Source: Naegleria gruberi (taxonomy: Eukaryota). From it: DNA of 64,000 bases. A program made the position numbers and the translations under genes. Numbering within the stretch: position 1 is the first letter of the stretch; every line of letters begins with the position of its first letter. Under the pieces are notes generated by a model. That model was not told the DNA's origin and did not search any database. It was given only the letters and a program-made list of their open reading frames with translations. Below are positions 3,634 to 29,200 of this stretch, piece by piece. The stretch is from assembly GCA_000004985.1 (NCBI GenBank), contig GG738908.1; one strand, 5' to 3'.

Positions 3634-3778
3634 TTTTAGGCTTTTTTTAAAATTATTAAATTTAAATATTAAATATTAAATAATATTAAATTTGAAGTAT
3701 CATGGAGATAAAATTAATAAACAAGTATTTAATATTTACAAAATAGTTAATATTTACGATTAATAGTATTTAAAAAAA
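3634..3778. promoter_or_regulatory. 145-bp divergent intergenic/promoter region between two start codons, more than 90% A+T.
   Basis: It lies between the ATG at 3633 (minus) and the ATG at 3779 (plus). It contains runs such as attaaatttaaatattaaatattaaataatattaaattt and no ORF. Confidence 0.4.
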
Positions 3779-5844
3779 ATGACATCATTGCTAGATGTAC
3801 AGGAATTATTGAGAATTTGTTTTTCAGTTCCGAGTGGAAGTAATACATCATCGATTGAGAGTGTTGCCTCTCGGATCCGATCAGTGGATGATGAAGTTGC
3901 TTGTGATAGTTACTATAATGTAAGTTTGATCAAAGGCTTTGTATTAGGAACATTATCAATTTTAATACTTATAATAATAATTGAGAAGAGATTGGTAGGT
4001 TTGCAATGGAAATGCATATTTAAATAATTGATAATATTATTTTGTATTCTCTTAAAGCATATTGTATGTTTTTGATGAACATATGAATTAGAATATTCAA
4101 TATTTAACGTTTATTTAAGGATGTAAGTTTTTTGGAATGAGGTTGGAAATTCAATTATTTAAGGATGTATGTTTGTCGTATTTGTGGAGTTTTATTGATT
4201 TGCGTATTGTAGAATGTTTGTATTTCATTTGAAATAGTTTTTTAATAATATTAATTATCGAGTAGAGTGTTGGAGTAAGTTTAATTTAGGTTATTGGAAA
4301 CTTGAATATGCTAAGTTGACAGTAAGTAGTAATATTGGTATTGGAAATATTGAACTCGGAAATAGTTTGTAAGTTTTCATTATGGGATTATTAATGTACT
4401 TGTAGAATGCAGCGTATGCGGCAAGTTGTAAAGGAAGATTGGATATTTTGAATATTCTTGTAAAGAATGAGGCTGATATAAATTATAAAAACTCAACTGG
4501 AGCTAATTGGACTCCACTTCATGGAGCAGTTTATTACAATCAGGTAGTTGTTGTAAAGTTCTTGTTGGACCATAATGCAAATCCTCTTATCAAAGATAGT
4601 GTATGTAATTGTATTTTCAATTTGAAATATAATAAGAATGATAGAGGGATAGAACGCCTCTGAATCTTGCTCGAAGTTTACACAATCAAGATTGTGTAAA
4701 ACTCCTTTTGCAATGTGATTTTAAATTCTTGAAACCTCTCAAGATATGTGAAAGGGATAAGCTATTGAATTCATCAGTGGTTTGTTTCAAACCTGCTTTA
4801 AAACAAATCACCCCATATTTTTATGAACGAGTTGTAAATAATCAAAAACTTATAGAGTCTTTGGATGAAGAGGAACAGTCAATTCTTCAATGTATTATTA
4901 AGAAAATCCTCTATGAAAAAACAGAGGAAAGACAATTTGATGTCAAACAGAAAATGATATGTACATTTTTATTGAGTACTACGGAGACTGACCTTATATT
5001 TATGAAAAACAGTCTAATTAGGGATTTAACGAGAATGATTAACTTGAAAAATGTTTTGGATAACTTGGAAACAATAGAAAAATATATTGAAAGAGAAAAA
5101 ACATACATCTCTATTCAGAGTGAAGAAAGTTTATTGAGAGAGTTTAGAGAATATTGTCTAGACATGCTGGGAAGTTATTCACACACTCAAGATTTTGCGG
5201 AACATGTCGAAAAAGATATCAGAATGGATAATTACCTTAAATTGTTTTTCAAACGTAAGAGTATAAGAAGTATAGTAATCAATGAGGATCGAGATGTAAA
5301 TATTCAAAATCCATATGTAAAGTTATTCAATCATGAACCTTCCCACGATCTCAGAATACTTGTTGGTGATCAAGTAACATACTATTGTCATAAGACTATA
5401 TTGGAATCTACTAGTTTATACTTTACAGACCTATTCAAGAGCAGCAATTGGTCTGATTTCGATACCGATGTATACAAACTGGATGTGAATGATGAGGAAT
5501 CAATTATTGCCACTGATTACATAATCAGATATTGCTACGATTTACAAATTGACATTGAGCCTTCTCATTTGATTGGTGTAATGAAGGCATCCCACATGCA
5601 CAACATCAAGCCACTAATTACCCTCTGCAGCAAGAAGCTAGAAATCTCAACTGATAACTACTTCTCATTAATTGAGGGTCTATATGACTATATTGAGGAT
5701 CCACTCTTCTCCAAATTACATCAAAATATCATAGAGTTTGGAGTCAAGCATTGTAAACAACTCTTTTCACAGGATAAGAAGTCATGTAGAAAACTTCCAC
5801 CAACAACTTTGGAAGAAATATTTACCAGATTGGCCTCTCGTTAA
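3779..5844 (+). CDS. Ankyrin-repeat plus BTB/POZ-domain protein, ~511 aa. Three exons: 3779-3919, 4406-4600, 4645-5844.
   Basis: Exon 1 is ATG...DSYYN followed by a GTAAGT donor. A 486-nt AT-rich intron follows. The acceptor ttgtag|AAT opens exon 2 (NAAYAASCKGRLDILNILVKNEADINYKNSTGANWTPLHGAVYYNQ..., ankyrin repeats). A 44-nt intron (gtatgt...atag) follows. Exon 3 continues the ankyrin repeat (RDRTPLNLARSLHNQDCVKLLLQ). It then encodes a BTB fold (DLRILVGDQVTYYCHKTILESTSLYFTDLF...). Exon lengths are 141, 195 and 1200 nt, keeping the frame. Confidence 0.6.
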
Positions 5845-6012
5845 TTCTAATTCTAGTTCTATTATTTCAGAATGTATTACTACAACATTAAAATAATGGA
5901 AGCTATAAAAATATTCTAAATAATAACAAACTACAAACCTCAATGTGTCAACAGTCATCAATAAGGGAGATAGCTTTGAAAAACCTCCAATTCCATCAAA
6001 CTATCAAAAACA

Positions 6013-8829
6013 ATGCAACAACATATACACGAGGTAACCATATCGGAAACTCCTCTTTCTTCAAACACAACTAAACGAAACTATGCCGATGCATACACTC
6101 TATCAGATGAGGAAATTCAACCAAGCACAATAGTTCCATCTCCCTTTCATTCAGAAACCCTATTTGTGATACAGAATGAAGAGTCGTACATGACTGGGAA
6201 ACCAACATACGAAACAATTAGAATAGAAAGAAGACCTCAATTATCTTTAACAGCACCAATAGCTAATCATGGCGACTCAAGAGGACATTTATCCTTAACA
6301 TCCTCAATAGTTTGCACACCAAAGAGTTTAGATGGTCATCATGCTCTAGACGAAACTTCAACAACCAGATATAATCATCAATGCATTACAACCATTGGTC
6401 AACCAACTCTTCATCACGAAACCAGTCAAATCTCCACTCAACTGACTCCTCCTGAAGAAAAGAAGGTCAAATATTCCTCCTTCTTCATCAAACTCTTCTC
6501 ATTTACCAACATTTTTATTCTAATGTTTATTGTTCAGGGATTAATAGGAGTTGGAACGGCCTTCATCTTGACAAACTCGTCAGTGAATCATGTTCTCGAA
6601 CACAGTCGACAATATCAAAGATTACAATTACAAGTTTACTTTAATTCAGAGTTACAAAAATTCATTTCACAAATTTCCTCAATGACCAACCACATTTCGA
6701 AACAAATGCAAAGATTTAACTTGAATGATAATTTGGCAATGATTAAGATGATTGACAGTATTGACACTGCTTACAACTCAAAGATTGGAGCAGGTGCTTA
6801 TAGGTGGGCCAGATTTGATGATTTTTACTTTGCGAGACAATTTAATGAAACTGTTGATGGTTATGTTGTAAGAGTGTACAATCCAATTGTTACAAATTTT
6901 AAATATTACAATGTCAGTAAGAATCAAATGTCAAAGGCACCTACTGGGAGTAAGATGGATGTTCATGAATATTTAAAAGGAATTTCTGTAGATCCGTATT
7001 ATGATGGAAATTCAACCTATTATCCAAAGAAACGAGAATATTATTTGCCATATGATAAGGGAAATCAATCTGCTACTGATATCATGTGGTCTAACAGTTG
7101 GGCTAATTTTAATGATGAGGTCGTGATTACATTGAGCATTCCAGTGTTTAGTAATTATTCGATGAGTTTCTTTAAAGAATCGAATAATTCTTATTTGATT
7201 CAAAACATGTTACATCCAAAATATATTTCCATTCCTAATGGACAACTTTCCAAGTATCCCTATTTGAAGAGTCCTCAATATTTATTTGGCGTCTTGAGTA
7301 TTCAATTCTCATGGGAATCAGCATCAAAAACTATTCTAAATGGTTCAAATTACGGGACAGATCTTCTTAAAACCAATGATGCGATGGAATACAGCATGAT
7401 AGTTGACTCGAAATATAACTTGATTGGTAAAAGCAATGAAAACAAATTATTGTCAACTATCCATCAGGTTCTAAAGGAAAGAAATTTGCTTTCTCTCCTT
7501 TCATCTCCCTGTGGAAACATGACAAGCAATATTACAGAATCAGAAATAACTTCCTATGGAACTGTTTTCTTTAAACTCAATTCTAAAAACTATGGAAAGT
7601 TAGTAACAGATGCAATTGAGGTTGAAATTGCTCCAATTTGTGACAAGTATGGAATTGATTGGTTCGTGGTGGTAGGAAATTACAAATCAGTAGTCTTGAT
7701 TCAACCGAGTCAAGTTCCAGATTTTGTTGTAACATTTGTACTTGTATTTGTTCTACAGGCAATATTTCTAGTATTTAGTGTTGTGAATATTAGATTGTCC
7801 TTCTCTGCTGTTAAGAATCAAGCTCTTTCAATACTAAAATTGGGAAATGAAAAGCAGATAAGTTCCAGAAATGCATTGGTAAGAATGTGGAACACGTTTA
7901 AATCGTTCTCATTCTTTGTGGATATTAGAGAAATGAAATCTAAATTATCTACCATTAGAAATGGACTCTCCACTTTCTCCAAATATGTTCCAGAACTCGT
8001 TGTGAAGGCATTCACAGAGAGGGATGGACCTTTTGATAAGATTAATTTGGCGCAAAGGAACATGACTATTCTATTCACTGAATTGGTTGGTTTTTCAGAG
8101 CTTTCACATGGCATTCATGATGATTTTCTTCCATGCCTTATGACTAATTATTTCACGATTGTTTCAAAGGCAGTCAAAGAGGAGGGAGGTATGATTACCC
8201 AATTTATTGGAGATAGAGCTGTTTGTGTATTTAATGTTTATTGCCTTCCATTGGAAAATCATGAAATTAAGGCATGTAGGGCAGCTCTCAAAATAATGAT
8301 GAATATTGAGAATTTTAATAGAATTCATCTATCTGATTTGCAAGTTAGAGCTTCCATTACCTCTGATGAAAATATTCTTTGCGGAAATACTGGAAGCCAA
8401 TCGAGAATGAATGTTACTGTAATAGGTTCAAGTGTACCTATTGCTAAAGCTCTTCTATTCTTGAATAAGCATGTTGGAAAGAAAATTCTCATCCATGAAA
8501 AGACCTATCAGAAAGTTGTGGAAAATTTCGTTTGTAACTTTGTTGATTATGTTTGTTTTGAAGATTGCCATTTCCCAGTTTATAGCTTGGAAAGCATTTT
8601 TAGTTTACTAACAGAGGAGAAGGAAGAGATACATAATGCCTCATTTCAAGTAGAATCTGCCTTGTCAAAATGTGACTTTTCTTCAATTATTGATATTTGT
8701 AAAAAGTATGAAAGTAAGGATGAATCTCTAAAGAGAATGAGAAAAAGAGCTGAAACCCTTGAAAACGATTATTCAATGTGGAATTCTTGTGATGATTTCG
8801 ATTGCTCTTTTAAACTAAGAGTTAAATAA
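6013..8829 (+). CDS. Receptor-type class III nucleotidyl (adenylyl/guanylyl) cyclase, 938 aa. Two predicted TM helices flank a ~550-aa N-glycosylation-rich ectodomain, followed by a C-terminal cyclase domain.
   Basis: ATG at 6013. Hydrophobic segments are FFIKLFSFTNIFILMFIVQGLIGVGTAFIL and FVVTFVLVFVLQAIFLVFSVVNI. The cyclase-domain motifs are MTILFTELVGFSELS ... QFIGDRAVCVF ... CGNTGSQSRMNVTVIGSSVPIAKAL. The stop is TAA. Confidence 0.7.
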   Translation: MQQHIHEVTISETPLSSNTTKRNYADAYTLSDEEIQPSTIVPSPFHSETLFVIQNEESYMTGKPTYETIRIERRPQLSLTAPIANHGDSRGHLSLTSSIVCTPKSLDGHHALDETSTTRYNHQCITTIGQPTLHHETSQISTQLTPPEEKKVKYSSFFIKLFSFTNIFILMFIVQGLIGVGTAFILTNSSVNHVLEHSRQYQRLQLQVYFNSELQKFISQISSMTNHISKQMQRFNLNDNLAMIKMIDSIDTAYNSKIGAGAYRWARFDDFYFARQFNETVDGYVVRVYNPIVTNFKYYNVSKNQMSKAPTGSKMDVHEYLKGISVDPYYDGNSTYYPKKREYYLPYDKGNQSATDIMWSNSWANFNDEVVITLSIPVFSNYSMSFFKESNNSYLIQNMLHPKYISIPNGQLSKYPYLKSPQYLFGVLSIQFSWESASKTILNGSNYGTDLLKTNDAMEYSMIVDSKYNLIGKSNENKLLSTIHQVLKERNLLSLLSSPCGNMTSNITESEITSYGTVFFKLNSKNYGKLVTDAIEVEIAPICDKYGIDWFVVVGNYKSVVLIQPSQVPDFVVTFVLVFVLQAIFLVFSVVNIRLSFSAVKNQALSILKLGNEKQISSRNALVRMWNTFKSFSFFVDIREMKSKLSTIRNGLSTFSKYVPELVVKAFTERDGPFDKINLAQRNMTILFTELVGFSELSHGIHDDFLPCLMTNYFTIVSKAVKEEGGMITQFIGDRAVCVFNVYCLPLENHEIKACRAALKIMMNIENFNRIHLSDLQVRASITSDENILCGNTGSQSRMNVTVIGSSVPIAKALLFLNKHVGKKILIHEKTYQKVVENFVCNFVDYVCFEDCHFPVYSLESIFSLLTEEKEEIHNASFQVESALSKCDFSSIIDICKKYESKDESLKRMRKRAETLENDYSMWNSCDDFDCSFKLRVK

Positions 8830-8851
8830 AGATTAATGTATCATTGCCAAA

Positions 8852-11437
8852 TCATTTAAATTTATAGAATGTGCTATTAGGTCCATACTTTTTCTTGAAT
8901 TGAATTTCGTCATAGTAATTGTTAAAAACGATAGTCTTGTTTTTGTTTTGGGATTTGTTTTGTTTCGTTGCAACGATAGGTTGTTGCTCTACTGACGATA
9001 TCGAATTCCTTCTGCTTCCCTTCTTTGAATTATTTGAACTGTTACTGGCAACAGCGGATACAGCACTAGCCACCATATTTTGTTCCAGTTGTCCTGTTGA
9101 AGAGCTGGCATTATTGATAGATCCCCTTACAGACGAACTTTTTCTCTTTGTTTTTGTTGGCTTCTCAACCCTGTTTACAAAAGTATTAATTGCAGGTGAT
9201 GAATGATGTCGTGGATGAACAGAAGTTTGATTATTCTCGAAACTTTGCTCATAATCTGTTCCAAAGGAACCAAAATTAAAAGTATTATTATTTGAAATCT
9301 CTATAGTTGGAACAGTTTCTTCACTAGACCTACTCATTGGACTAACAATTTCTTGAGGAACGTTGGTACTATGGGTAATTTGGAATTGTGGAGGAGATGA
9401 AAAAGTTCTAGAACGTGTTGGAAAATTATTTACAGGTGTTTCATTTGTAACAAGCTTTAGACCAAGAGATGATTTGCAACCACTCAGTGCATTATCGATC
9501 ATTGAATAAAGAGCTTGATTTTCATCTACTACTTCATTATTTGTATGTAATTGTTTTTGAAGAACTGTTTTGAGGAGAGAATCTCTTGGTAAAGTTGTTG
9601 AAGAATCTTCTGACATGTAACTTGCAACACTAGATCTACGTTGTTGTTGAGAATTTGAAACTACCACTTCATTCGATGATGTATAAGTATTAGAAACTGG
9701 AGAAGTTAAATTATTTTGATTTGACATGCACAACACTTGAAGAGCAGCCAACTGTTCTTGATTCAATTTAGAAATATCAATTTGACTCAAAAATGTTGCC
9801 AGAGGAGAAGGAGGAGGTGATTGTTCCATTGAGCTACATCCTGCAGAGGATGTTGGTGAATAGGTAACACTATTGTTATTATTTGCATTAAATCCAAAAT
9901 ACTGATACGAGTGATTATTATCCATCATCATTGCATCAGAAATCTCCATTTTGTCCTTTGAATGAAAGCTTCTGCTTCTGATAGTTCTCTTTGCTTTGTT
10001 TTGAATAATTTTGTCCATAGCAATTGTTGGAGAGCCATTCATTGGATGAAGAGATGATGTATGTTGATAACTATTGTCCATGATTGGAGCGTTCGTTAAT
10101 ACATCGGTTGAAGAAGGCAATTGGTGTTGCATAGAAGAGCAATTATTAGGTGATGAGGCAAAACTAGAATTTGATGAGGAAGGAGAGTAGAGATGTTGTT
10201 GTTGTTGCAAATTCGTATTGTTATTGTTCATATATGTGTTGACCATACCGTCGATATTAAATGTTTGATTCGCATCTCTCCTTAGTGGATTATGCAAGGA
10301 ATGGGATCTGGATCTTTGTATGATATTTGGTGTTGAGCGATGTTGAATATTATTGAATAAATTATTATTATTATTATTGAGTGATGTAGTTGGTAGAGTC
10401 GAGAAGGAACATGCAGTTGCTGAATCATCTTCTATTGAAAATGAAATTGCATCTAGATTCGAGGTGTCTGATGTATGTTGATGATGTTTTTGCTTGGATG
10501 AAACATTGTTTGACTCTCTCTCTCCATCTGAAATAAAAGAGTAATCTTTTTGTTGTTCATTATAAACCAAATCATTGGTCTTTGTAGTTCATATTGTATG
10601 TTTGAAGAGGTATGTTATATAATCAATGATCAAAGATGATGTATTTAAGCATGATGATGAGGATGAGAATGACAGATAATTATTAGTAAATAAACTATTT
10701 CTACTACTACTTACCATCATTTCAGTCTTGGAGAGGTGAGAATTTTCTTTAAATGTTAAGGGAGATGGACCAAACTCTCTCTTTTCGAAAGAACTTGTAT
10801 CGTTATACACATCAGAAGAACCAACCAGTAAGCCTTGGGGATTGCTATTAAATTGCATTTGTCTAAAAGAAAAGTCGGCATTTGATTCCGGCTTTTGCAC
10901 ATTTAAAGATGGATAAGCTTGTGTGGTGCTATTTGGAATATAACTAGTATGTATAAATGTTGAGGTTGTTAACATGTCGTTGCTCATGAAGGAATCCAAT
11001 GGTGCATTGATTCCGTTGCTAAAGGTATGTTGATTCAAACCATGATTGGCATGGGATGGCTGAATGCTGGATGTACTTGGTAGGAGAATGTGTGGAGATG
11101 GATTATGATGATTGCTTATCGAATGATGGTCAGACTCTTGTGAGAATAAATTATCAAAATTGTTATTCAAATCGTGTGGATTCAAAATTGTTTGGTGATT
11201 AAGGTATTGTTGGTTAAGTTCTTCCTGTTGTTGTTGAGTTAAAAAGGATGAAGGATTTTCGGACGATGAATATACCATTCTTGTGTGTAATTGCTGTGAT
11301 TGATCTAAGTTATCGAAAAGGTCAGACTCATCACAAGACTGCTTGTTAATTTCATTCAATATTTCTTGTTGTTGAGAAAGATTGGGATGCTGATGATTAA
11401 CAAGTTGTGAATGATGCAACTTTTGCTTATTGCTCAT
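8852..11437 (-). CDS. Asn/Gln/Ser-rich low-complexity protein, ~816 aa. Two exons: 10715-11437 and 8852-10579.
   Basis: The first ATG is at 11437. A 135-nt intron at 10580-10714 has a GTAAGT donor and a caaag acceptor. It contains the in-frame TGA that splits the two track ORFs. Both ORFs are in the same frame and the intron length is a multiple of 3. Confidence 0.6.
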
Positions 11438-12677
11438 CTTCAAAGAAAGCAAGAGCAATAAGCCAAATAAGGATGATTGTTTGAGTCTTTTTTCTAAGGA
11501 GATTTGTCAATACAATCCTAACAAGTCCGTTGCGAAGGTAACCTACTTACAATACTTTGTGAATTCAACACACAGAGAGAGTAATAAGCAACGAGTTGTG
11601 GATTCAACAAGAATGGAAGTAATTCTTTCCGTCTATATTTCTAGAGACCAACAAAATGGCAGGTGAATATTTGTGAATGGGTTTTAGGACTTGATTTTTT
11701 GGGTGTGGATCTTAATTAAGGAAGGCAGCCCGTACTTTTACAGTGTTGTGGAATTGAATCGAAGGTTGAGGATGCTCTCTATGGAATAAATTGTGCGGAT
11801 ACACAACAACAACAGCACAGTAAACACAACTAGATGATCACAGTTGTGTTTTTTAGCTTAGCTACTAGCCTGTAGATAGTCTTTTGGCGCACAAATGATG
11901 ACACTGCTGTAATGTGATAAATACTCTACTGTATAACCAACACACTGATTATCTTCTTATGATGATGACTGACGAGATATTTGATTACGGTTAAATATTC
12001 TTCTTTTTCTCTATGATGAATATTGGGAAGAAACAATTTTGAATCAAAAACTTCCAATATTTTAATGTATTGTATTAAAACAATGATGATGGACAAAAGA
12101 CCTTTTGATGATCAAAAAGCTAACCAGAATCACCACGACCAAAGTTTCTGTTGTAGAAGACGTGATAAAAGTTACCAAGGTGGGATGGTGTTGTTTTTTT
12201 CAATGTGGAAAGTTGAATGGCGGTAAACTTTCTTTTGGAAATGTCTGCACGTAAAAGTAAATCAAAAACAACCATAATATAAAGAGAGGGGGAACATTCT
12301 ATTGCCGGCAACACAATAGTGATGTCACCCTTTCAATTGGTGAATAATGTCTTTAATATATTGTAATGATCAAAGCTTTCTCTTTACAAAGTGGGAGAGA
12401 GAAGAACCCAATTATTTGATTATAATACAGGAAATAGTTATAGGAATGATGTTCAATGAAAATTGTGGAGTAAGCTGGTTTCAACTCGTGTGAAAAATCA
12501 AAGCACCGTTTGACTCAAAAGGGAGCACGAGTATGACAGACCAAAAAACAACATTATCCATATCAGTGGCCCAAATCAACAATTGGTTAAGAGGAATAAT
12601 TTCCAAAAGAACTTTATTAGACCGAGAGTTCTTTCAATATGTTACAACAATGAGAGTTCTAGGCAAGTGCTCTTACT

Positions 12678-14344
12678 TTAAATACCACCGGCAACTTCTA
12701 ACTCCTTAATTTTCTTATTATTCTTAATCTTCTTGACGTATTGTTTAAACTCTGAACTTTCCAAGAAGTTTTGGTAGGTACCATTTTCGTTAAGAACAAG
12801 TTTGAGTTTTTCAATGGCAATATCAAACAAATCAATTGGGACTTCATCATCATAAGTAATTTGATTGTATCTGTGAATAATTCTCTTCTTTACCTTACCA
12901 GCAATGTTAATTTCATTAAGAGCATCATCCTTGATATAATTTTCAATAATATTTGGAGCCATGTGAGATCTTTCATCAGGTGTAGCTCTCTTATAATTCA
13001 TAACATCCTCATAGAAAAGAATAGTTTCACTGCAAAGGGCTTTCAACAAGTACTTCTTAAATAATTCTCTGGTTACATCATTTTCAAGCATCTTTTCAAT
13101 ACTATTTGGAATTTCCATCTTTCCTAGTTCAGTCATACTCATACCTGTTTTCTTTCTGAGAGCATTATAAGCAAGTAGGAGAACTGGATAGTATAAACAA
13201 GTGGTATGAATTGCTTGAACCCAAATTTGGGCCATAACAACAAATGCAAATGAGAGATTTGTAAATGAAAGAACTGCAAGGAAAATAGTACCAATAATTG
13301 AAATGACAGTAGCAACTCTGATTTCAGTATTCAATGAATAGGAATCGTTAACTTCTCTCAACATGATAACTTCAATCAATAACATGATATCAACAATAAA
13401 CATTAAAGGAACAACAAGTCTAGGGTAGAGAATGTAGGTCATGATTGGATTGTTGGTTTCTCTTTCATTGATTTGACACAAAAAGTCATGAGGACATAAT
13501 CCTGGATAAGCCAAAGAAACTGGAAGCATCAATACAACGACAACAATTAGCATAATGACAAAGAATTTGACAAGATTGCTTTCTTCAGCTCTTCTCTTAT
13601 TGACATTGCTAGTGTTGGTTGCCTTTTGTTTTCTAATCATTTCAGAGACTTCTGTGGCATCAATCAATGTTGGCACATCTTCAACATCAAGAACTGAAAT
13701 TTGATCAGTTTGTAAATCATCTTGATTATTATGACGCCAACCTCTTGTGCTCGTTGATGGTTTTTGTGGTTGTGATGGTGGAGCAGTACTTTCTCCGAGA
13801 CCATCTTCAATGGCTTCACCTTGTTGTTTTGCCTTGTTTTGCAATTTTCTATTCAAGTTTCTTGCATTTCTCCTTTCCTTTGAAATTTCTTCTTGTTTCT
13901 TTTGTTCTGCAATCATCCTGAAGATTAGTTTCGAATAACAACATTGTCATTGAGAATAATTTCCAACACAAGACATTAAAACAATGATGACATTCAAGGT
14001 AAATTATTTCGGTTAATTAATACTTACTTTGAATTCCAGTGGTAGATAAAGTAAATTCTCCAAGCTCTCAACAGCAATGGAGCCCACAGAACATAAAAAC
14101 TTATGTTAGCAACAAGAACAATTAAACTACATGGTGTTTCCGGAATGCTATATGATAGAGTGTAGGCACCTAAATATATGGAAGCACCTATTGATGACAA
14201 GGATGATAGAACAGGAGCTCTTGCACGCATAGACTGATTGTTTCTGAATACAACAATCACAATAGCACAAGCAATACACAACAGAAATTGTAGACACCAC
14301 AATACTATGAAAAGTATTTCAGAGCCTTGTATGCTAAATGTCAT
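12678..14344 (-). CDS. Seven-transmembrane protein with a C-terminal RGS (regulator of G-protein signalling) domain, ~518 aa. Two exons: 14028-14344 and 12678-13917.
   Basis: ATG at 14344. Exon 1 encodes three hydrophobic helices. A 110-nt intron (gtaagt...tcttcag) joins in frame (...YHWNSK|MIAEQKK...). Exon 2 has a long Lys/Gln-rich loop, then four more helices. The RGS-like C-terminus reads SIEKMLENDVTRELFKKYLLKALCSETILFYEDVMNYKR...IIENYIKDDALNEINI. Exon lengths 317+1240 = 1557 nt. Confidence 0.65.
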
Positions 14345-19365: not shown

Positions 19366-22300
19366 TTAAATTGTTGTTGGATTATCAAAATGAACATCAA
19401 TAACATCAATAGTAGAGAAGGTCTTCATGGCAATGCTATATGGCTGTCTGTGGCCTATGGTCGGAGTTGTAGAATCACGATGTTCAAATCTAAAAGCATT
19501 TTGAGAAGAATTTGATTGTAATGTGGAGGAAGTCACAACTCTTTCGTATTGAGGATTAGGAGGAGCCTCCTTGTTGGTTTCCTTTGCATTATCCCTCTTT
19601 CTCTTTTCTCTCACTATAATACAGCCAACAGTTATTGGAATAGCGATGAAACAACCACAACAGATAAATATTGGAATCAAGATTACAGCAGCTGCTCCAC
19701 TACTGTCATTGCTAAGTGGTGCGTTAATGTCATTTGGAAGAGTTTGTTCAAGGTAATCAGCAGTTATTCCAACCATTGAATTGTTCATGAGGTTGGAAAG
19801 AGAGGATAAATCACACAAACAATGGACAATGAGAGTTTGTTCACTTGCTTTGATATCTGTCAATAATTGGAAAGATGTCTTGACAAATTTACAACTTGAT
19901 TCAGTTTCAAAATTTGTAAAATCAAGAGTCAAACTGCATCTGAATGTTTGATTGGTTCTTGAACTGATTGGTGCAATATAGGATGGAATTGGAATATTGA
20001 TATGAACACTTCCTGTCAATGAATTTGAAATGTTCAATTGTGAAACATATTCCTTTTTTACATCTTCAACTTTTCTTGATAATTTGGTTGGGAATTTGAA
20101 TAATGAATTTGCAATATTGACCATTTGAATGGTGGAAATCATGGAAACACTAAAAGAGACCAATGAACTATTAGAATTGGAGAAGGAAAAACTATTTGAG
20201 TTCAGTGCTGAAATAGATGTTTTTACAGCATTAATAGAAACCAAATTGGATGGTTTTTCACCTGGGAAAAAGTCTAAAGTTGTCAATTCTGTTTTAGTAC
20301 CCAAAGAAATAGCAGCATTCACAATTGAAGATGCCAATTTGATGGTTGATGTTTCTGGAATCTTTGATGCGACATTTACCAAAATTTCAGAAAGTGAATT
20401 TGAAGAATCTGATGACCAAACAGCTGCCTTACTTGAAATATCAACAAACTTGTTAATCATGTCAACAGTTTTCGATGTAGTTTCTTCTGTTAAGAATTGA
20501 GGTTTTGAAAGTACTTTGACTTGGTTCATGTAATTGGACATGTCTTCAGAAGTGACTGAATTTTGTGCAAGATTTGTATCTAATTGAGTAGAAAGAGATG
20601 TTGCTGTTGCATTTAAGGCGAGTGGAATAATTTTAGAAATTTCACTAATGACAGAATTATTTTGGGCCACTGTACCGATATTAGAAACAATTGAAATAAC
20701 CAAATCATTGCTCTTATGGAAATCATTTGTTGGACTTGATAACGAGTTTGAAAGAGAGGAAACTACATCATTTGTGAACAAACTATTGGTACTGAACTCG
20801 ATGACGTTTGTCAACTTGATAGGCATTGTTAGTTTACCACCAGTTTTGGTGTCTGAAAAGAGAATTTTGAAATTTGAACCAAATTTTGTAGTCTTGAAGG
20901 ATATTGGGAAGGATACCGATGTTGCAACGATACTATCTTCATTAAGAAGTGTCATACTAATGGTAGAGAGTGGATTTCCCATGGTACAAGAAAGCTTTCC
21001 AATTGTAAAACCAACTTCAAGTTTAGAAGGAGTGATGGTACAATCTTTGAGTTTGATTTGATCAGATAGAGAATCTTGTACAGTGACTGGAACTGTAACA
21101 TCTGTAACGTCGCTGGTTCCCATCAAGGAGAGGGTAAAGTATTTACCAACATTTTGAATTGTTGAATCTTTGGATTTGAGTTTTCCGTTTTTATATTGCA
21201 ATGGGAGTAAGTATCTCGTACCACTAACAAAAATTGAAGCTAATGGATATCTTTCAAATTGTGAACCAATGTAACGAATATCAACTTGGCAATTAGAAGC
21301 TTGGGATGTCAAAATATCCAAAAAGTAAGTTGTAGATTCTTCCAAGGATGGAATAACATTATTAACTTTCATACCAGTTAAAGTTGCTCCAAGTACGTTG
21401 CATGATGATACATCTATGCGAGTATCAGGGATGAATGAAACCACTTGGGTGGATTTTCCAATGACAACTGGTTGATTTTCAGAATTGGTCATGAGGTTCA
21501 ATAAATCAGGGGCTGGTGCTACTGAATAATAATATGATTGGAGACATGCAACTGTAAAGGTATGATCAATGGTCATATTAAAATCAGGGTAAATTGTATT
21601 CACTGGTACTGAAACAGTTGCAGAGGAAGTCTCTAAACTAATCTTCCTGTACACGTGATTATTTTCCAACAGCAGGAAAACAATTGATTTTTGTAAAGAC
21701 TCTGCACCATAATAATTCTTGCAAGTGAGTGTAATACTAGGAATTCTGGATGGCTTATACACAATCAGTGATTCCTTGATCAAAACAGTTGGAGCAATCA
21801 TTTGTAATTGGAATGGAAGTGTTGTACCATCAATAAGTTCTATTGTGAATGACAAATTCTCACTGAATGTTTTTGGTTTGATAACAATTGCTTTTTCAGT
21901 TGTTTCCCAATTAAAATAATAAGTTGGATAGGTAGAATGGACTTGGAAGGAAACAGTTCTGGCGTCGACACATTCTTGATTCTCAGCGAAGAATTGGGCA
22001 AGGGGTATTGTTGCTTGCGTAGAGGTCATTACAATCTTGGTTGTTGGAACTTTGAGTAGTAATTTTGGATAGGATCCTTCGATTGGGAACGAAAGGTTTT
22101 TGGTGTATGTTAAACCAAAATTAGAAATCACACTGACAGACATGTCAATAGTAGAAAGCTTTAAAATATCTGAAACATATGGGAAAGTCCATTCCAATTG
22201 ATTTTGGGAATTTTGAATGGCATCACTCACTAATTTGTTAGACATTAAGGCAACTGAATTTCCTGTCAATTCCCAAGTCATTGCTTGGAAATTTCCATGT

Positions 22301-25300
22301 TCTGGTTGAGAATATTCAGCCTTAACATTGCTTTCAAAACATCTATTCATCGATTTGGAACTGATCTTTCCATTGGAAATTTTAGCAGAAACTCCATCAT
22401 AATAATGTTGGAAGGAGCTCAAAAAGGCACTCACATCTAATTGGACGGAAACGTATTTGTCAGACTTTGGATTCGACCAAAATACGTTGAACATTATTGG
22501 TTCTCTTGGACTGAAGATTGCATCTGATTGAGATACATATGCTTTGATGGTATATCTGTAACTGTGCAGGTCAGAATTCAATCTATTTTCTGTTACATAA
22601 CATAGCATTGGATAAGAAGTGGAACTCTTGGTGACTAACTTGTCAATATTTCCAAATATTTTCTCGCAATCCACCTTTGAACTAGTGTATCTGTAATTAC
22701 TATTGGTAACAATGCTGAAAGCTGCCAATTTTTTTCCAATTCCCCAAAGATTTTGATCCATATTCAAGTCAACTGAATAATCAAAATAGGTAGCTTGATC
22801 TGATTCCAAGAAATTGAAACAATCATCACCAAAGTGAGCTCCTATACAACCAGAACACGATTGTCCAGTGTAATAGTCGAGACATTGTTCACAATAAGTA
22901 CCATTGGATCTCGTATTGCATTTACAAACATTGTAGGAGGTACAAGTTCCTCTATAATTACAAACTGATTCTTCAGAGTGTGGTACATTGTCACATGTCC
23001 AATTTCCACACTTTGACCCATAGTAACCGGTAATGCAATCTTGGCAGGTATCTCCCTTAATAGTTTCCGATTCACAGACACAGATGTTTACAGATTTACA
23101 ATGACCTCTTGCTGAACAAACGGCTGGTGAAGAATTTTCAATTCCTCCACATGTCCATTTTTCACAATGAGTGCCATAATAACCATCTTCACAAGTTTGG
23201 CAATTACTACCAATGGATTTTGGTCTCGTACAAGAGCAAGTATCGAGAGCTGTACATATACCATTTCCATTGCAAACATTTGGATCCATGAAATGAGTTC
23301 CATTACATGTGAATTGTTCACAATTTTCACCAAAATATCCATCAGTACAGTTACAGTTATTGTAATCAACACATGTACCCTTAGAGGAACAGACTCTTGG
23401 TTGTGAGCTATCAGTTCCGTTACAACCAAAACTTTGACACATGCTTCCGTAATAACCAGTCTTGCAAGAACAAATACCAGGTTTCACACAAGTACCTTGC
23501 CCAGAGCAAACATCAGTTTCGTTTGCTACTTTCCCAAAACAAATTGGAAGTTCACAATTTTTACCTGCATAACCAGTACTACATTCACACAAGTCAATGT
23601 CCGTACATTTTCCATGGTTTGAACAGACACCATAACTACTCTTGGAAATTCCAAAACATGCGGCTTCAATTTCACAAGCATCACCATAATAACTACGATC
23701 ACAAGCACAGGTACTATTGAAAAAACAAGTACCTCTTCCATGACAAGATCCTGAATTGTAGCTTGACAAATCTTCACAAAAACCATAAGGAACACAAGTA
23801 CCTGAATCACTAGGAGAAATGGATGCAGAACAAGAGCAAGTGTTTGGACCAGTACATTTACCTTTTCCATTGCATACATTAGGGTTGGTAGCTTCGAGAT
23901 CATAACAAACAGGAGTATTACAGGAGGCCCCTGTGTAGCCACTTGCACATGAATATGTTGGCCAGTAGCCATAATGGTACCAAATGGAATCAACAACAGC
24001 GCCACAAGACATGGATGCTCCAACTAAATCGAGGCCACTAGGGACGTACTCAATATTACCACCCCAGCAACCATTTGCACCGTAGCTGTTCTTATTAGTA
24101 TCAAATCTAATACATGCCAATGTTGTGGATGCCCAAATCCAGAAACCATAGTCTCTATACTCGTGATGAATTTTAGTGATGTATTCATCATCAGCAAGTG
24201 TAAATTCAGTTTCCCGATTATCGCTGCTACCAATTGATTGACTGGTACCATCTCTAAACCTGAATTCGATACCGTACACATAGTCACTACTGTGTTTAAT
24301 TTTCATTCCTTTGATAAATTTAGATGTTGACTGCGGTGAACTCGTTTTACCTCCGTAGCTTGCACTACTTGTCACATACTGATATTCTGTACCTAAATAA
24401 TAACCATTAGAACTAAAAGACAAGGCTTTCAACTCTTTGGAAGTACCAGAAAGTCTAATGTAAATGATTGGCTTTTGCTCGCCTACATAATTATTGGAAT
24501 TCACAATAGGACTTGATGTTGAGACGATAAAACTATCAGTAATATCGTATTCTGTTGATAGTTGTTGAACTTGAATGATTTTTCCTTCCAGATGTCTGAA
24601 TCGGAATTGATACACACTCTTAGATTGAGCTTGCATAGTTCTGCTATTACCATCCACAATTGAATAAGGATCAGCGCTTGTACCAGTAATGACTGTTGCA
24701 ATGGTATTGTCTCGCTCAATTGACAATGAATGGATCTTGAAATAATCTTGTTTGAACTGGGAAATTTGAATGAAATTCTTTGTGAATGTAAATGTTGTCT
24801 TGATATAATCATATTGCAGAAGGAAGATATTTGGAGAGATTGCATTTCCATTCAAAAAACAATCAGCTTCACATGACAAGAGAATGTTGAGCTTCCCCAA
24901 TGAATCGAACTTAATTTTTGGAGTGGGAATCATGGCAGATGAACTGTGGAAGACTTTCTGAGAATGGACATAGGATCCATCCTTTGGATTTAACAATAGA
25001 ACCCATAGGGAAGACTGATGAGGTAAATATTCCTTATTTTCCCCATCAATGATCAGTTGGAATTCTTGTGTATCAAAGAACGAAACAACAACCCGATCAT
25101 ATACTACCGAGTAGTGAATAGCCATAACTTTACACTTTGTTGTGTCTTCACAACCTGCTATTGCCTTCTTTAGAATAACTTGATCTTTGTAAATGATCAA
25201 GTAAATTTGATATCCTTTCTGCATAATGAAGTATCTCTTTCCGCTTACATTGTCAATGTACATTGCTTGAATAGAATATCCAATCAAATTACTAAAAGGG

Positions 25301-25833
25301 GTGACAGATTGTACAACTCCTGCTGATGAAAGAGTTGCCATAAATGGTATATTCTTAAAGCTTGAGAATGTCTGTGAGGTGACTTGGAAACGTCCAATAC
25401 AAACTGGATACTGAGCAACAAAATACCCAGTCAACAATATATCTGCTTTGGAATTGAGGAATGTAATAGATTCACCCTCAAGTTGTGCTCCTCCACAATC
25501 ATCCTTTATGTTTACCTCCAGGAAGGAATTAAAAGTTTCACCAGAACGAACATTTCCCTGAATCATCACTCGTGAGGAATTTAAACTTGGAAGTGGAACC
25601 TTAATCAACATGTAATGTTTTTCATTATTGTCGGAAATTACATCCACAAAGGACGAACCCTCCCCAAGTGTTTTAATGGTACTGTCAAAATTCTTGATGA
25701 GGCCGTATTTGCAGTTTGGTGCAATCTTGGTCATATCTGAGCAAGGTTCCCCTAAACCTGCCTTAATCACATCAAATATTGAACATGATACAATTAAGAA
25801 AATTAGAACAAACGGCAAGACTGTTGTTCTCAT
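19366..25833 (-). CDS. Paralog A, 2155 aa. Signal peptide, N-terminal domain, jacalin-like lectin domain, ~13 tenascin-type EGF repeats, Ser/Thr-rich stalk, one TM helix, and a short cytoplasmic tail ending PTTI.
   Basis: ATG at 25833. The signal-like N-terminus is MRTTVLPFVLIFLIVSCSIF. The jacalin-like stretch is YVYGIEFRFRDGTSQSIG...GLDLVGASMSCGAVVDSIWYHYGY. EGF repeats have the form CxGxGxCxxPxxCxCxxGYyGxxC. The TM helix is AAAVILIPIFICCGCFIAIPITVGCIIV, followed by REKRKR. Confidence 0.8.
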   Translation of the reverse strand: MRTTVLPFVLIFLIVSCSIFDVIKAGLGEPCSDMTKIAPNCKYGLIKNFDSTIKTLGEGSSFVDVISDNNEKHYMLIKVPLPSLNSSRVMIQGNVRSGETFNSFLEVNIKDDCGGAQLEGESITFLNSKADILLTGYFVAQYPVCIGRFQVTSQTFSSFKNIPFMATLSSAGVVQSVTPFSNLIGYSIQAMYIDNVSGKRYFIMQKGYQIYLIIYKDQVILKKAIAGCEDTTKCKVMAIHYSVVYDRVVVSFFDTQEFQLIIDGENKEYLPHQSSLWVLLLNPKDGSYVHSQKVFHSSSAMIPTPKIKFDSLGKLNILLSCEADCFLNGNAISPNIFLLQYDYIKTTFTFTKNFIQISQFKQDYFKIHSLSIERDNTIATVITGTSADPYSIVDGNSRTMQAQSKSVYQFRFRHLEGKIIQVQQLSTEYDITDSFIVSTSSPIVNSNNYVGEQKPIIYIRLSGTSKELKALSFSSNGYYLGTEYQYVTSSASYGGKTSSPQSTSKFIKGMKIKHSSDYVYGIEFRFRDGTSQSIGSSDNRETEFTLADDEYITKIHHEYRDYGFWIWASTTLACIRFDTNKNSYGANGCWGGNIEYVPSGLDLVGASMSCGAVVDSIWYHYGYWPTYSCASGYTGASCNTPVCYDLEATNPNVCNGKGKCTGPNTCSCSASISPSDSGTCVPYGFCEDLSSYNSGSCHGRGTCFFNSTCACDRSYYGDACEIEAACFGISKSSYGVCSNHGKCTDIDLCECSTGYAGKNCELPICFGKVANETDVCSGQGTCVKPGICSCKTGYYGSMCQSFGCNGTDSSQPRVCSSKGTCVDYNNCNCTDGYFGENCEQFTCNGTHFMDPNVCNGNGICTALDTCSCTRPKSIGSNCQTCEDGYYGTHCEKWTCGGIENSSPAVCSARGHCKSVNICVCESETIKGDTCQDCITGYYGSKCGNWTCDNVPHSEESVCNYRGTCTSYNVCKCNTRSNGTYCEQCLDYYTGQSCSGCIGAHFGDDCFNFLESDQATYFDYSVDLNMDQNLWGIGKKLAAFSIVTNSNYRYTSSKVDCEKIFGNIDKLVTKSSTSYPMLCYVTENRLNSDLHSYRYTIKAYVSQSDAIFSPREPIMFNVFWSNPKSDKYVSVQLDVSAFLSSFQHYYDGVSAKISNGKISSKSMNRCFESNVKAEYSQPEHGNFQAMTWELTGNSVALMSNKLVSDAIQNSQNQLEWTFPYVSDILKLSTIDMSVSVISNFGLTYTKNLSFPIEGSYPKLLLKVPTTKIVMTSTQATIPLAQFFAENQECVDARTVSFQVHSTYPTYYFNWETTEKAIVIKPKTFSENLSFTIELIDGTTLPFQLQMIAPTVLIKESLIVYKPSRIPSITLTCKNYYGAESLQKSIVFLLLENNHVYRKISLETSSATVSVPVNTIYPDFNMTIDHTFTVACLQSYYYSVAPAPDLLNLMTNSENQPVVIGKSTQVVSFIPDTRIDVSSCNVLGATLTGMKVNNVIPSLEESTTYFLDILTSQASNCQVDIRYIGSQFERYPLASIFVSGTRYLLPLQYKNGKLKSKDSTIQNVGKYFTLSLMGTSDVTDVTVPVTVQDSLSDQIKLKDCTITPSKLEVGFTIGKLSCTMGNPLSTISMTLLNEDSIVATSVSFPISFKTTKFGSNFKILFSDTKTGGKLTMPIKLTNVIEFSTNSLFTNDVVSSLSNSLSSPTNDFHKSNDLVISIVSNIGTVAQNNSVISEISKIIPLALNATATSLSTQLDTNLAQNSVTSEDMSNYMNQVKVLSKPQFLTEETTSKTVDMINKFVDISSKAAVWSSDSSNSLSEILVNVASKIPETSTIKLASSIVNAAISLGTKTELTTLDFFPGEKPSNLVSINAVKTSISALNSNSFSFSNSNSSLVSFSVSMISTIQMVNIANSLFKFPTKLSRKVEDVKKEYVSQLNISNSLTGSVHINIPIPSYIAPISSRTNQTFRCSLTLDFTNFETESSCKFVKTSFQLLTDIKASEQTLIVHCLCDLSSLSNLMNNSMVGITADYLEQTLPNDINAPLSNDSSGAAAVILIPIFICCGCFIAIPITVGCIIVREKRKRDNAKETNKEAPPNPQYERVVTSSTLQSNSSQNAFRFEHRDSTTPTIGHRQPYSIAMKTFSTIDVIDVHFDNPTTI
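19742..20482. repeat. Inverted-repeat arm 1, ~740 bp, inside the 3' part of paralog A. Near-identical at the DNA level to 31549-32282.
   Basis: Identical runs of up to ~85 nt include synonymous positions, for example ttaacaagtttgttgatatttcaagtaaggcagctgtttggtcatcagattcttcaaattcactttctgaaattttggtaaatgt. The antisense shadow ORFs 20129-20500(+) and 31493-31888(-) translate to near-identical peptides. Confidence 0.75.
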
Positions 25834-26236
25834 ATTGAGTTGTTGAGTGTTTTGTTTTTCGGATTTTGGAGAAGGGACGCAAAGTCGATGAGGCCAACAC
25901 TTTTGACACTCAATTCACACCCACACAATTTGTGGTTGCATATTTCCTGTTGTTTGGTCCACTGTAAATAGTGTTAAAAAGGGTGCAGATGGGCTCACAT
26001 AGAGTCCACCACAGCCCTTCTCCAAAATTGTAAATCTTGAAAAATAACAACTTATTAAGACTTGATTACAGTTGCCAAGGGCGCAAACAGTAAATGAAGG
26101 AAATTGCCAGCACGCAAACAACAACATTTTGAGGTGTGAATGCACAGTTTGTCACAGATGTTTGCCTCTTCGTCAATGCGTCTTCTTTTGAAGCAAAACT
26201 TGAAAAAAACAACAACACAAACAAACAACACTCAGA
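25834..26236. promoter_or_regulatory. Shared divergent promoter region between the start codons of paralogs A and B (~400 bp).
   Basis: It lies between ATG 25833 (minus) and ATG 26237 (plus). It contains no long ORF apart from track artefacts. Confidence 0.4.
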
Positions 26237-29200
26237 GATGAAACTTCTTCATCATCACTATTTAACTTTCCTGTTATTGTTGTGGGTAGCGAGCTGTGTA
26301 GTGGCTGTGACCTTAGAACCATGCGCGGACATGACCAAAACAGCTCCTTATTGTAAGAATGGCCTCACTAAGAATTTTGAAAAATCCATCAAGGTATTTG
26401 ATGGTAGTTGGGAATTAAGGGATTCAATTGCTGACCAAAATGAGAGACACTATATGTTAATTAAGGAAAATTCATCAAAGATTATCATTCAGGGAAATCA
26501 ACGTTACGGCTCAAATTTCACACAGTTCTCATCTACCACAATTCAAGATGATTGTGGACAAGCAAATATTGAGGGAGAATCAATAAGGTTTTTGAACTCT
26601 GATGGGCAAATTCTATTGAGTGGTTGGTTTGTGGCCAGTGAATCTGTTTGCATTGGTGATTTTCACGTGTATCCACAACAAAATTCTTCAGCAAACTCAA
26701 CAGATCTCGCAGAAACTAGTATCCCTTTTTTAGCAATTCTTTCACCAATTACTGCTGCTGTGCAATCAGTGGTAACTCTTACGGATATGATTGGGTTCAG
26801 CCTGCAATCCTTGGATATAGATCAATATACTGGTAAGATTTACTTGATTATGCAAAACAAGACTCAAATCAACTTGGTGACACTCTTCAAGAATCAAATC
26901 ATTCTCAACCAGCAAATTGCAACCTGCCAAGATCCAACCAAGTGCCAAGTCTTGTCTATTCACTTCTCTGCCTTGTATGAAAGAATTATTGTCTCTTTCT
27001 TTGAGAAGTCTTCCTTTCAATTAACAATTGCTGGCGATATGAAAACGTATTCATCTTATCAATCAGCTCAATGGGTACTATTGCTCAATAAGGATGGATC
27101 CTATATTCACAACCAAAGAATCTTTCATAGCTCGGACTCTGTTATGTCCACACCTAAAATCAAGTTTGATTCTATTGGAAAACTCAACATTCTCCTTATT
27201 TGTGAAAGAAATTGTTACCTTAATGAAGATGCTGTTTCACCAAATGTATTCCTTCTTCAGTATGATTATGTAAACACAGTCTATTCATTTGTGAAGAACT
27301 TTATTTCTACAACTGGAAATTTCACATTCACCATTCATTCACTCTCTGTTGAAAGAGATTTAACACTGACTACTGTAATCTCACCACTTAATTCAGTTTC
27401 GTATACAATTAAAGATGTAGCAGGAAGATCTATGCAAGCTGTAAATAATACTGTCTATCAGTACAGATTCAGACATGTTGATGGAAAGATTATTCACATT
27501 CTTCCTCTCACTTCTGAAGTTGATTTGACTAATGCATTCCTAGTTTCAACTTCCAGTCCAGTTGTCAACACTAACAACTTTATAAGAGAACAGAATCCAA
27601 TCCTTTACACAAGAACATCACCAATTACATACAAGACAGAACTTTTTGTTCAAGCATATATTTATTATGGCAATAGAGATAATGAAAAGGACTATACCTA
27701 CATCTCGAAAAGTCCTAGATATGGTGGTGATAGTGGAGCTGGAGATCCAACAACCCAAAAGGTGTCAAGAATTGATATTTTGGGTGATGGATACGTTTAT
27801 TGCTTCAAATTCACATACACCGATGGAGCTATCAAATATTTTAATGAAGCAAGATGTATTGGTAGAGTTATCACTGCCTATTTAGACAATGATGAATATA
27901 TCAAGGAGATGAGCCACGATTATACCACCTTTGGGAGTGCGCAGATATTGCTTTGCATTTCGTTTAAAACAAACAAACAAACCATCAATTTTTTATGTGA
28001 CAACAAAGTGAAATTTGTGGAATATGTCCCAGAAGGATTAGAGGTAATAGGGTTTGGAGTTAAAAGTGGTTATTGTATTGATTCAATCTCCTATATGTAT
28101 GGCTATACCAATACTTATTCATGTGCCAACGGTTACAGTGGTGATGACTGTTCAGCCCCAGTATGTTATGATGTTGATTCTTCCAGTAAGTTGGTGTGTA
28201 ATGGAAATGGTCGATGTGCAGGTCCTAATAATTGCTCCTGTATGTCATCAAGTGTTAACACTGACTCTCACAATTGTGCATCATATTCATTTTGTAATGA
28301 TGTTTCATCCAACAGCGTGGCCATATGTTCTGGAAGAGGATCATGCCATTACAATGGAACATGTAGTTGTGAAAAAGGTTACTACGGAAATGAATGCTCA
28401 ATCGAAGCACAATGTTTTGGTATTCCAAAGAGCAGTTATGGAACTTGCTCTAATCATGGTAATTGTTTAGACATTGATACTTGCGAATGTAATGTAGGTT
28501 ACACTGGAAGAAATTGTGAACTCCCAATTTGTTTCGGAAAGGCGGCTAACACTTCAGGTATTTGTTCTGGACATGGATCTTGTGTGAGGCCAAGTGTCTG
28601 TTCTTGCAAAACTGGTTACTATGGTCCAAAATGTGAATATTTCTATTGTAATGGAACTGCCAATGCTTCTCCATCAGTTTGTTCATCAAAAGGTGGCTGT
28701 ATAGACTACAACAAATGTGTTTGTAAGGAAGGTTACTATGGTCCAAACTGTGAGCTCTATAATTGTAGTGGAATTGTGTATAATGATCCAAATGTTTGTT
28801 CAGGAAACGGACAATGCATTGGAGTAAATAATTGCGCATGTACCACTCCAAGATCTAGTGGTCAATCGTGTGAAAAATGTGATTCTGGTTACTTTGGGTC
28901 TCACTGTGAAAAGTTCACATGTGGCAACATTGAGAGCACCTCTCCAACCGTATGTAGTGGAAGAGGCATTTGTAAATCTTTAAATACTTGCATTTGTGAA
29001 AATGACAATATTAATGGAAAGCTTTGTGAAAGTTGCATCACTGGTTACTATGGGGAAAAGTGCACCAATTGGACATGTAATGGTATTCCAAGTACTAATA
29101 GTTCAGTTTGTAATTATAGAGGAGTTTGTTCTTCGTATAACAATTGTGTATGTAATAGCAGATCATATGGCACATATTGTAATCAGTGTATTGGATTCTA

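Follow-up and report, generated by a model that had tools for sequence, protein, structure and literature searches.

A divergent dCache-like receptor of Naegleria gruberi with a degenerate class III cyclase domain, a candidate pseudo-cyclase

Introduction

Class III nucleotidyl cyclases form their active sites across a dimer interface, with one subunit providing two metal-binding aspartates and the other a base-recognising pair together with the transition-state asparagine and arginine. This sharing of the active site has been restated for NeoR and RGC1, the rhodopsin-guanylyl cyclases of chytrids (PMC12264004). NeoR carries T455 and K459 at the NxxxR motif that holds the Asn and Arg; it has no activity by itself, which the loss of NxxxR explains, and functions together with a paralogous receptor. 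Both residues are essential in mammalian adenylyl cyclase (PMC12264004). Here we describe a predicted receptor of Naegleria gruberi that is encoded at positions 6013..8829 on the plus strand of a 64,000-nucleotide stretch of contig GG738908.1 (the window, by which we mean that whole stretch). Its single class III domain is degenerate at the catalytic positions.

Naegleria species encode roughly 80–100 cyclases, which are assumed to act as environmental sensors (PMC9928731). Upadhyay et al. (2016) noted Rv2435c of Mycobacterium tuberculosis and one Naegleria adenylate cyclase with a Cache domain (PMC4822843). The transmembrane adenylyl cyclases (TMACs) of Trichomonas are proteins of 1450–1700 amino acids with 6–8 plus 4–6 transmembrane (TM) helices, in which the C-terminal cyclase domain is active (PMC2914791). 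Our analysis of the N. gruberi protein, which draws on sequence comparison and structure prediction, leads us to favour, at roughly even probability, a transmembrane receptor of the double-Cache (dCache) type whose class III domain has become a non-catalytic pseudo-cyclase that likely acts via mixed dimers.

Results

A class III cyclase fold with degenerate catalytic residues

The list of open reading frames (ORFs) gives 6013..8829 (+) as a complete, uninterrupted single exon of 938 amino acids. An exact-sequence look-up matched its product to the N. gruberi "predicted protein" XP_002671086.1/EFC38342.1/UniProt D2VXS2 (NAEGRDRAFT_73850), whose gene lies on a 259-kb scaffold; none of these identifiers is mentioned in the searchable literature. 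The sole Pfam domain of the protein is PF00211, which covers amino acids 682–835 with 25.1 bits against a cut-off of 21.9. A phmmer search of solved structures returned Pseudomonas aeruginosa CyaB (3r5g) as the best match (E 1.2e-11), followed by photoactivated cyclases (PACs). Sequence and structure matches alike place the domain within the class III fold.

Catalytic positions were mapped through three independent alignments: the pairwise phmmer alignment, a MAFFT alignment of 150 homologous domains, and a hidden Markov model (HMM) built from those 150. All three agree on the domain residues listed here.

8050..8562, plus strand: class III cyclase homology domain, amino acids 680–850; fold intact, catalytic residues degenerate
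8080..8082, plus strand: codon GAA for Glu690, first metal Asp position; motif FTELVGFS at nucleotides 8074–8097
8200..8202, plus strand: codon CAA for Gln730, position of the substrate-specifying Lys; ITQFIGD against IDKFVGD or vdKyiGD
8212..8214, plus strand: codon GAT for Asp734, second metal Asp, retained; IGD at nucleotides 8206–8214
8437..8439, plus strand: codon CCT for Pro809, transition-state Asn position; VPIAKAL at nucleotides 8434–8454
8449..8451, plus strand: codon GCT for Ala813, transition-state Arg position; VPIAKAL against VNLASRL

Four of the six canonical residues are replaced (Asp by Glu690, Lys by Gln730, Asn by Pro809, and Arg by Ala813). Glu690 lies in MTILFTELVGFS, where the consensus reads ltilFsDiegFt. 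The sixth position, the second specificity position, is usually Asp, Thr, or Ser in adenylyl cyclases and Cys, Gly, and others in guanylyl cyclases; here it is occupied by Asn800. Because the same Asn occurs in the 87 of 150 homologs that read D-K-D-N-N-R, Asn800 is, judged by its relatives, normal for the group and probably no defect. A first-pass annotation of this gene had recognised Glu at the first metal site, the intact Asp of IGD, and Pro in place of the transition-state Asn, all of which recur in each of the three alignments. Its placement of the Asn position by hand was correct, but its reading of Arg replaced by Lys was shifted by one: Lys812 (nucleotides 8446–8448) sits one residue upstream of the Arg position, out of register. 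The loss of the substrate Lys at Gln730 is an addition to its list of residues.

Of the features that mark a competent cyclase, the domain has only one of the two metal Asp residues and lacks both the substrate Lys (adenylyl cyclase) or Glu (guanylyl cyclase) on the β2–β3 hairpin and NxxxR. The fold is preserved, as are many structural residues that line the pocket. In a homodimer, both symmetric sites would be missing the substrate Lys as well as the transition-state Asn/Arg pair, and one metal position in each would be Glu; such a homodimer is therefore very probably inactive, as the first-pass annotation had supposed; we regard homodimeric activity as improbable.

A predicted dCache-like ectodomain between two transmembrane helices

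The remainder of the protein has the layout of a receptor.

6013..6477, plus strand: N-terminal cytoplasmic region, amino acids 1–155; predicted disordered, not conserved in the family
6478..6573, plus strand: TM helix 1 (TM1), approximately amino acids 156–187; hydropathy peaks, within the long model helix H164-232
6574..7710, plus strand: extracellular sensor, amino acids 188–566; divergent dCache fold with 10 N-glycosylation sequons
7711..7797, plus strand: TM helix 2 (TM2), approximately amino acids 567–595; hydropathy, model helix H565-608
7798..8049, plus strand: helical linker ending in FSKYVPELVVK just before the catalytic fold; model helices H621-630, H636-655, and H661-668
8563..8826, plus strand: C-terminal helical tail, amino acids 851–938; partly conserved in the family, consensus IYSLEC...ATDLQKKI

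The structure was predicted from an alignment of 16 family sequences; prediction from the single sequence reached a predicted local distance difference test score (pLDDT) of only 32. The resulting model has a mean pLDDT of 67.9, with the ectodomain and the cyclase domain mostly between 70 and 95. Amino acids 1–153 fall below 50, and the N-terminal region could not be aligned within the family alignment. The receptor ectodomain that had been proposed from the DNA letters is borne out: a region of about 380 amino acids is flanked by the two TM helices and contains 10 of the 14 NxS/T sequons. In the model this region has a long stalk helix at its N terminus and a double PAS-like fold, as in dCache sensors.

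Pfam scans found no match for the ectodomain, the linker, or the tail, and dCache_1 (PF02743) matched neither the receptor nor the 16 members of the family alignment. When the family-ectodomain profile was compared with the Protein Data Bank, most hits were dCache chains, with E values of 0.2–2 and alignments centered on an RPWY...PvY motif. The same profile aligned to residues 34–212 of P0026, a family member described below, with an hhalign probability of 99.2%; P0026 in turn matched dCache_1 at E 6.8e-9, but its 36.1 bits fall below the 45-bit cut-off. The sequence evidence for a dCache-like ectodomain is weaker than that from the model, yet agrees with it. The FSKYVP block of the linker is conserved in the 16-sequence alignment and in the 150-sequence HMM ("FskYvPeelvkk"), and we take the linker to be an element resembling a cyclase transducer. 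The tail is modeled as three helices (H868-885, H889-899, and H904-923) with pLDDT of about 80–88.

A mostly degenerate receptor family in Heterolobosea

An exhaustive search of 1.8 billion representatives yielded 26,013 cyclase-domain matches, about 20 of which also align across TM1, the ectodomain, and the tail. Named members come only from N. gruberi, N. fowleri, N. lovaniensis, and Willaertia magna, with one more distant relative in Acrasis kona; the others lie on metagenome contigs. No member was seen outside Heterolobosea and related metagenome contigs. A word-indexed protein search, with the family profile included, recovered only the 99% allele described below. The closest relatives share 42–43% identity with the receptor in the ectodomain and 31–40% in the cyclase domain.

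Within the 16-sequence alignment, the structural positions G726, G791, G805, and F843 are invariant, and C755 and D845 are invariant or almost so. For conservation, all catalytic columns but one rank 81–109 of 171, the metal columns being at rank 109; the exception, Asn800, ranks 30. A census of 23 representatives that carry the family-specific motif F-x-C-x-F-[VIM]-D found 16 to be degenerate and seven canonical; active partners exist in the family, given those seven. At least the Arg is missing, in assorted ways, from 13 of the 23. Three others (P0026, P0071, and P0098, from N. lovaniensis and N. fowleri) are "C2-like", with the pattern G/S-K-G-x-N-R: the metal ligands are lost, the first site being G or S and the "GD" motif reading "EG" or "DG", and Lys, Asn, and Arg are retained. 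These three are 32–39% identical to one another.

The C2-like genes are interrupted at a similar place in the cyclase domain, at approximately 11308–11349 of locus L005, 11896–11926 of L006, and 11848–12029 of L007. In L005 and L006 the interruption separates ...MLCG(C) from MGS..R, and in L007 it lies close by; the receptor gene has no intron. The similar site in three genes suggests a common intron and shared descent of the C2-like clade. P0071 (N. fowleri VFQX01000028.1, L006 10001–15041) precedes, by 265 bp and on the same strand, a gene for a PAS-domain cyclase, the first detectable exon of which keeps the metal Asp and a K..GD motif and looks canonical. This adjacency could be that of a functional pair or chance in a cyclase-rich genome. 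Only this N. fowleri locus of the three has a cyclase neighbor, which makes pairing by adjacency unconvincing.

Retention of the gene and drift of its catalytic positions

N. lovaniensis P0003 is 36–37% identical to the receptor and is surrounded by the same genes: an N/Q-rich gene and then an RGS gene downstream, with HydE, HydG, a Thy1-like gene, and an adenylate kinase nearby. On this shared neighborhood, P0003 is the positional ortholog of the receptor. Most syntenic neighbors are 64–89% identical to their counterparts in the window (39% for the N/Q-rich gene), and the receptor diverges between the species much faster than most of them.

At the six catalytic positions P0003 reads E-Q-G-S-T-N. 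It shares Glu and Gln with the receptor and has Gly, Thr, and Asn at the positions of Asp734, Pro809, and Ala813, which leaves its metal sites as Glu/Gly; its motif in the Arg region, VTLIRNM, has no Lys near the Arg position. Both orthologs thus have Glu as the first metal residue and Gln in place of the Lys, and these two residues are older than the split of N. gruberi and N. lovaniensis. The ortholog has been kept intact with different residues at three positions, so the protein has been retained over the long term while its catalytic positions drifted.

An environmental contig (ENA ERZ929261, 5.2 kb, 5232 bp) carries an allele of the receptor gene with 99.1% DNA identity. The alleles differ in the coding region by 13 synonymous and five non-synonymous changes, none at a catalytic position. 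The ratio of non-synonymous to synonymous differences per site (pN/pS) is 0.10, with a binomial p of 4e-6 against neutrality, so the gene is, by this measure, maintained by purifying selection. Both available alleles have identical residues at the degenerate positions; it is on this ground that we consider the pattern in the receptor not to be chance.

The contig aligns to positions 3752–8979 of the window with 32 mismatches and 10 gap openings, again at 99.1% identity; to judge from this closeness, a very close N. gruberi strain occurred in the sample.

Neighboring genes

Immediately 5′ of the receptor gene lies an ORF with a BTB/POZ domain (4708–5844, plus strand), which the environmental contig carries as well. 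At this position N. lovaniensis has a 540-amino-acid gene that matches no Pfam family and shows no detectable similarity to the BTB ORF. Directly after the receptor gene come two consecutive low-complexity ORFs rich in Asn, Gln, and Ser (8852–10570 and 10589–11458, both minus strand), neither of which matches a Pfam family. Identity between the first and its syntenic counterpart in N. lovaniensis is 39%, and the two N. gruberi ORFs may be a single gene. About 4 kb downstream of the receptor gene is an RGS-domain ORF (12678–13916, minus strand). Its N. lovaniensis ortholog (locus L004, 21490–23039) is annotated 7tm_3 plus RGS, and the N. gruberi ORF may be just the last exon of a seven-transmembrane-RGS gene.

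Farther along the window, two giant head-to-head paralogs (19366–25833, minus strand, and 26136–32699, plus strand) encode 2155 and 2187 amino acids that are 55% identical over approximately 2200 residues. Both contain a Jacalin-like lectin domain, numerous EGF/teneurin-type repeats, and a hydrophobic segment at the C terminus, and they appear to be surface proteins resembling adhesins or receptors whose genes form a tandem pair with divergent transcription. ORFs 51263–52411 and 52435–53703 (both plus strand) match one 800-amino-acid N. lovaniensis gene with an adenylate-kinase domain at 69–82% identity and are probably one gene split by a short intron or a frame change. The 262-amino-acid ORF at 53748–54536 (minus strand) has a weak match to Thy1/ThyX, the flavin-dependent thymidylate synthase, that lies below the cut-off (E 0.0016); its N. 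lovaniensis ortholog, 76% identical, matches Thy1/ThyX at E 2e-9, and the ORF possibly encodes a divergent ThyX-like protein in a eukaryote. The divergent neighbors at 57270–58961 (minus strand) and 59429–61003 (plus strand) are HydG and a HydE-like radical SAM gene, both [FeFe]-hydrogenase maturase genes. The HydG is 100% identical to the N. gruberi HydG entry, and the adjacency of HydG and HydE is conserved in N. lovaniensis (L004 181–3884).

Discussion

The pseudo-cyclase interpretation suggests a model in which the dCache-type extracellular sensor is coupled through TM2 and the helical transducer to the class III cyclase-fold domain; the sensor, the fold with its dimer-forming scaffold, and the transducer are retained, and catalysis would be lost. 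A homodimer would synthesize neither cyclic AMP (cAMP) nor cyclic GMP. Since dimerization is obligatory for the fold and canonical members occur in the family, the most likely mode of action would be mixed dimers with catalytically competent paralogs of the heterolobosean family. Ligand at the receptor's own ectodomain would then tune or dampen the cAMP output of the partner and would not itself make cAMP. The conserved function would be independent of the receptor's own metal site.

Several points weigh against this interpretation. Some cyclases tolerate loss of the Asn, as Ma1120 does with Ala in its place (PMC4215837), and Lys812 beside the Arg position might partly compensate for the Arg. 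Confidence in the structural model is moderate (mean pLDDT 67.9 from 16 sequences). Heterodimerization is argued by analogy from the dimeric fold and from precedents, and no partner emerged for N. gruberi, with no second cyclase domain in the 64-kb window and no N. gruberi C2-like member in the best 150 representatives. Finally, acidic residues at both metal positions could mean that the metal site is still used.

The last point leads to the alternative that the first-pass annotation had put forward, namely that the receptor is the C1-type half of a heterodimer. Glu690 and Asp734 would bind metal in a single composite site, and a C2-like partner receptor would give Lys, Asn, and Arg, so that cAMP would arise from the heterodimer only, as in chytrid NeoR/RGC1, mammalian C1/C2, or the α and β subunits of soluble guanylyl cyclase. 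In favor of this model, both metal positions are acidic while Lys, Asn, and Arg are all gone; P0026, P0071, and P0098 are complementary and have held on to these three residues despite their mutual divergence; and NeoR, without NxxxR, sets a precedent as a donor of metal Asp residues that shows no activity by itself (PMC12264004). The earlier proposal is partly supported. The difficulty is that the metal ligands are not conserved in orthologs: with Glu/Gly, syntenic P0003 has no two-carboxylate metal site to donate. Conservation of the metal columns within the family is poor, the first of the two ligands is Glu and not Asp, and we found no evidence either way on whether catalysis tolerates Glu. 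There is no N. gruberi C2-like member among the top 150 representatives, and neither tblastn nor a six-frame scan with a purpose-built HMM found a second cyclase domain in the window. We consider the C1-type model possible but unlikely, and the pseudo-cyclase that the first-pass annotation had offered as its alternative fits at least as well.

A more elaborate version holds that dCache receptor halves are combinatorial, with metal donors of the C1-like kind (this gene) and Lys/Asn/Arg donors of the C2-like kind (the P0026/P0071/P0098 clade) together building cAMP enzymes. If true, cAMP synthesis would require the coincidence of two different extracellular signals, which would amount to an independently evolved AND gate at the level of receptors, analogous to the chytrid NeoR/RGC pairs but with chemical sensors. 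We hold this version to be rather improbable.

Somewhat less doubtful than the combinatorial scheme, though still a long way from probable, is a non-catalytic module that forms homodimers without other cyclases and serves as a nucleotide-binding or scaffold element, either through an ATP/GTP pocket or through effectors recruited by the tail. It would account for the preserved fold and pocket-lining residues and for a helical tail conserved across the family; no result here points specifically to nucleotide binding, however, and the tail matches no Pfam family.

An unorthodox but active homodimeric cyclase, with substitutes such as Lys812 for the Arg and Gln730/Asn800 for base recognition, seems very unlikely. 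A basic residue does adjoin the Arg position, and a Gln/Asn substrate pair has been reported in mycobacterial Rv0386. The activity of Ma1120 with Ala at the Asn position (PMC4215837) also speaks for such an enzyme. Four canonical residues, however, have changed together, and no alternative catalytic set is conserved, because the ortholog differs at three of these positions and its VTLIRNM offers no Lys close to that of the Arg. A decaying pseudogene or annotation artifact, which degenerate catalytic residues and fast divergence between species (36% identity against 64–89% for most syntenic neighbors) might suggest, is scarcely credible given an uninterrupted ORF of 938 codons, a pN/pS of 0.10, an intact syntenic ortholog, and an ectodomain that is conserved with the closest relatives above the cyclase domain.

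Returning to the pseudo-cyclase receptor and its family, the degeneracy of most members bears on how the Naegleria cyclase repertoire is counted. With one receptor family largely degenerate, simple gene counts overstate the capacity to generate cAMP, and part of the repertoire probably consists of regulators or heterodimer partners. The data also point to an entire family of these receptors in Naegleria rather than a single one, and to dCache-type sensors being commoner there than the single case seen by Pfam (PMC4822843). The literature searched holds no description of a heterolobosean family of dCache-like, mostly degenerate receptors that includes a C2-like clade. The practical consequence is modest: defined constructs for tests of heterodimeric receptor cyclases in a free-living species related to the pathogen N. 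fowleri.

Among described receptors with this architecture (TM helix, dCache, TM helix, and cyclase), the bacterial-type dCache-cyclase receptors such as Rv2435c are alike in layout. In contrast to these and to the Naegleria Cache-cyclase that Pfam detects, the ectodomain of the receptor is too divergent for the Pfam model and its cyclase domain is degenerate. ACG of Dictyostelium and the receptor-type adenylyl cyclases of trypanosomatids are competent homodimers with other sensor folds and show no sequence relationship to the receptor beyond the cyclase domain. Membership in the Trichomonas TMAC family was considered and rejected, as the receptor, with 938 amino acids and two TM helices, differs in architecture. 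A parabasalid origin of the window, to which low GC, few introns, and the HydE/HydG and BTB genes might point, was rejected too, since its HydG and the receptor both match N. gruberi entries exactly; the window is nuclear DNA of N. gruberi. A class III cyclase-like ATP-binding protein of P. aeruginosa (PDB 6yii) likewise uses the cyclase fold in a non-catalytic role, but it is a soluble bacterial transcription regulator without receptor architecture.

Other parallels are degenerate domains that work with a partner. Transmembrane adenylyl cyclases (tmACs) have their C1 and C2 halves fused in one chain, and the α and β subunits of soluble guanylyl cyclase (sGC) are obligate soluble partners; the receptor's similarity does not single out C1, and its best matches are homodimeric cyclases of bacterial type (CyaB and the PACs). 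NeoR resembles the receptor in being a single-polypeptide receptor with one class III domain that has lost NxxxR. However, NeoR has both metal Asp residues, a known partner, and a rhodopsin sensor, whereas the Naegleria receptor has Glu as first ligand, has lost the substrate Lys, carries a dCache ectodomain, and has an ortholog without the second Asp. Degenerate class III partners and regulators are already known from tmAC C1/C2, sGC α/β, and NeoR/RGC; the receptor is an uncharacterized addition to them, and the family-level picture is an extension of known principles and not a new one.

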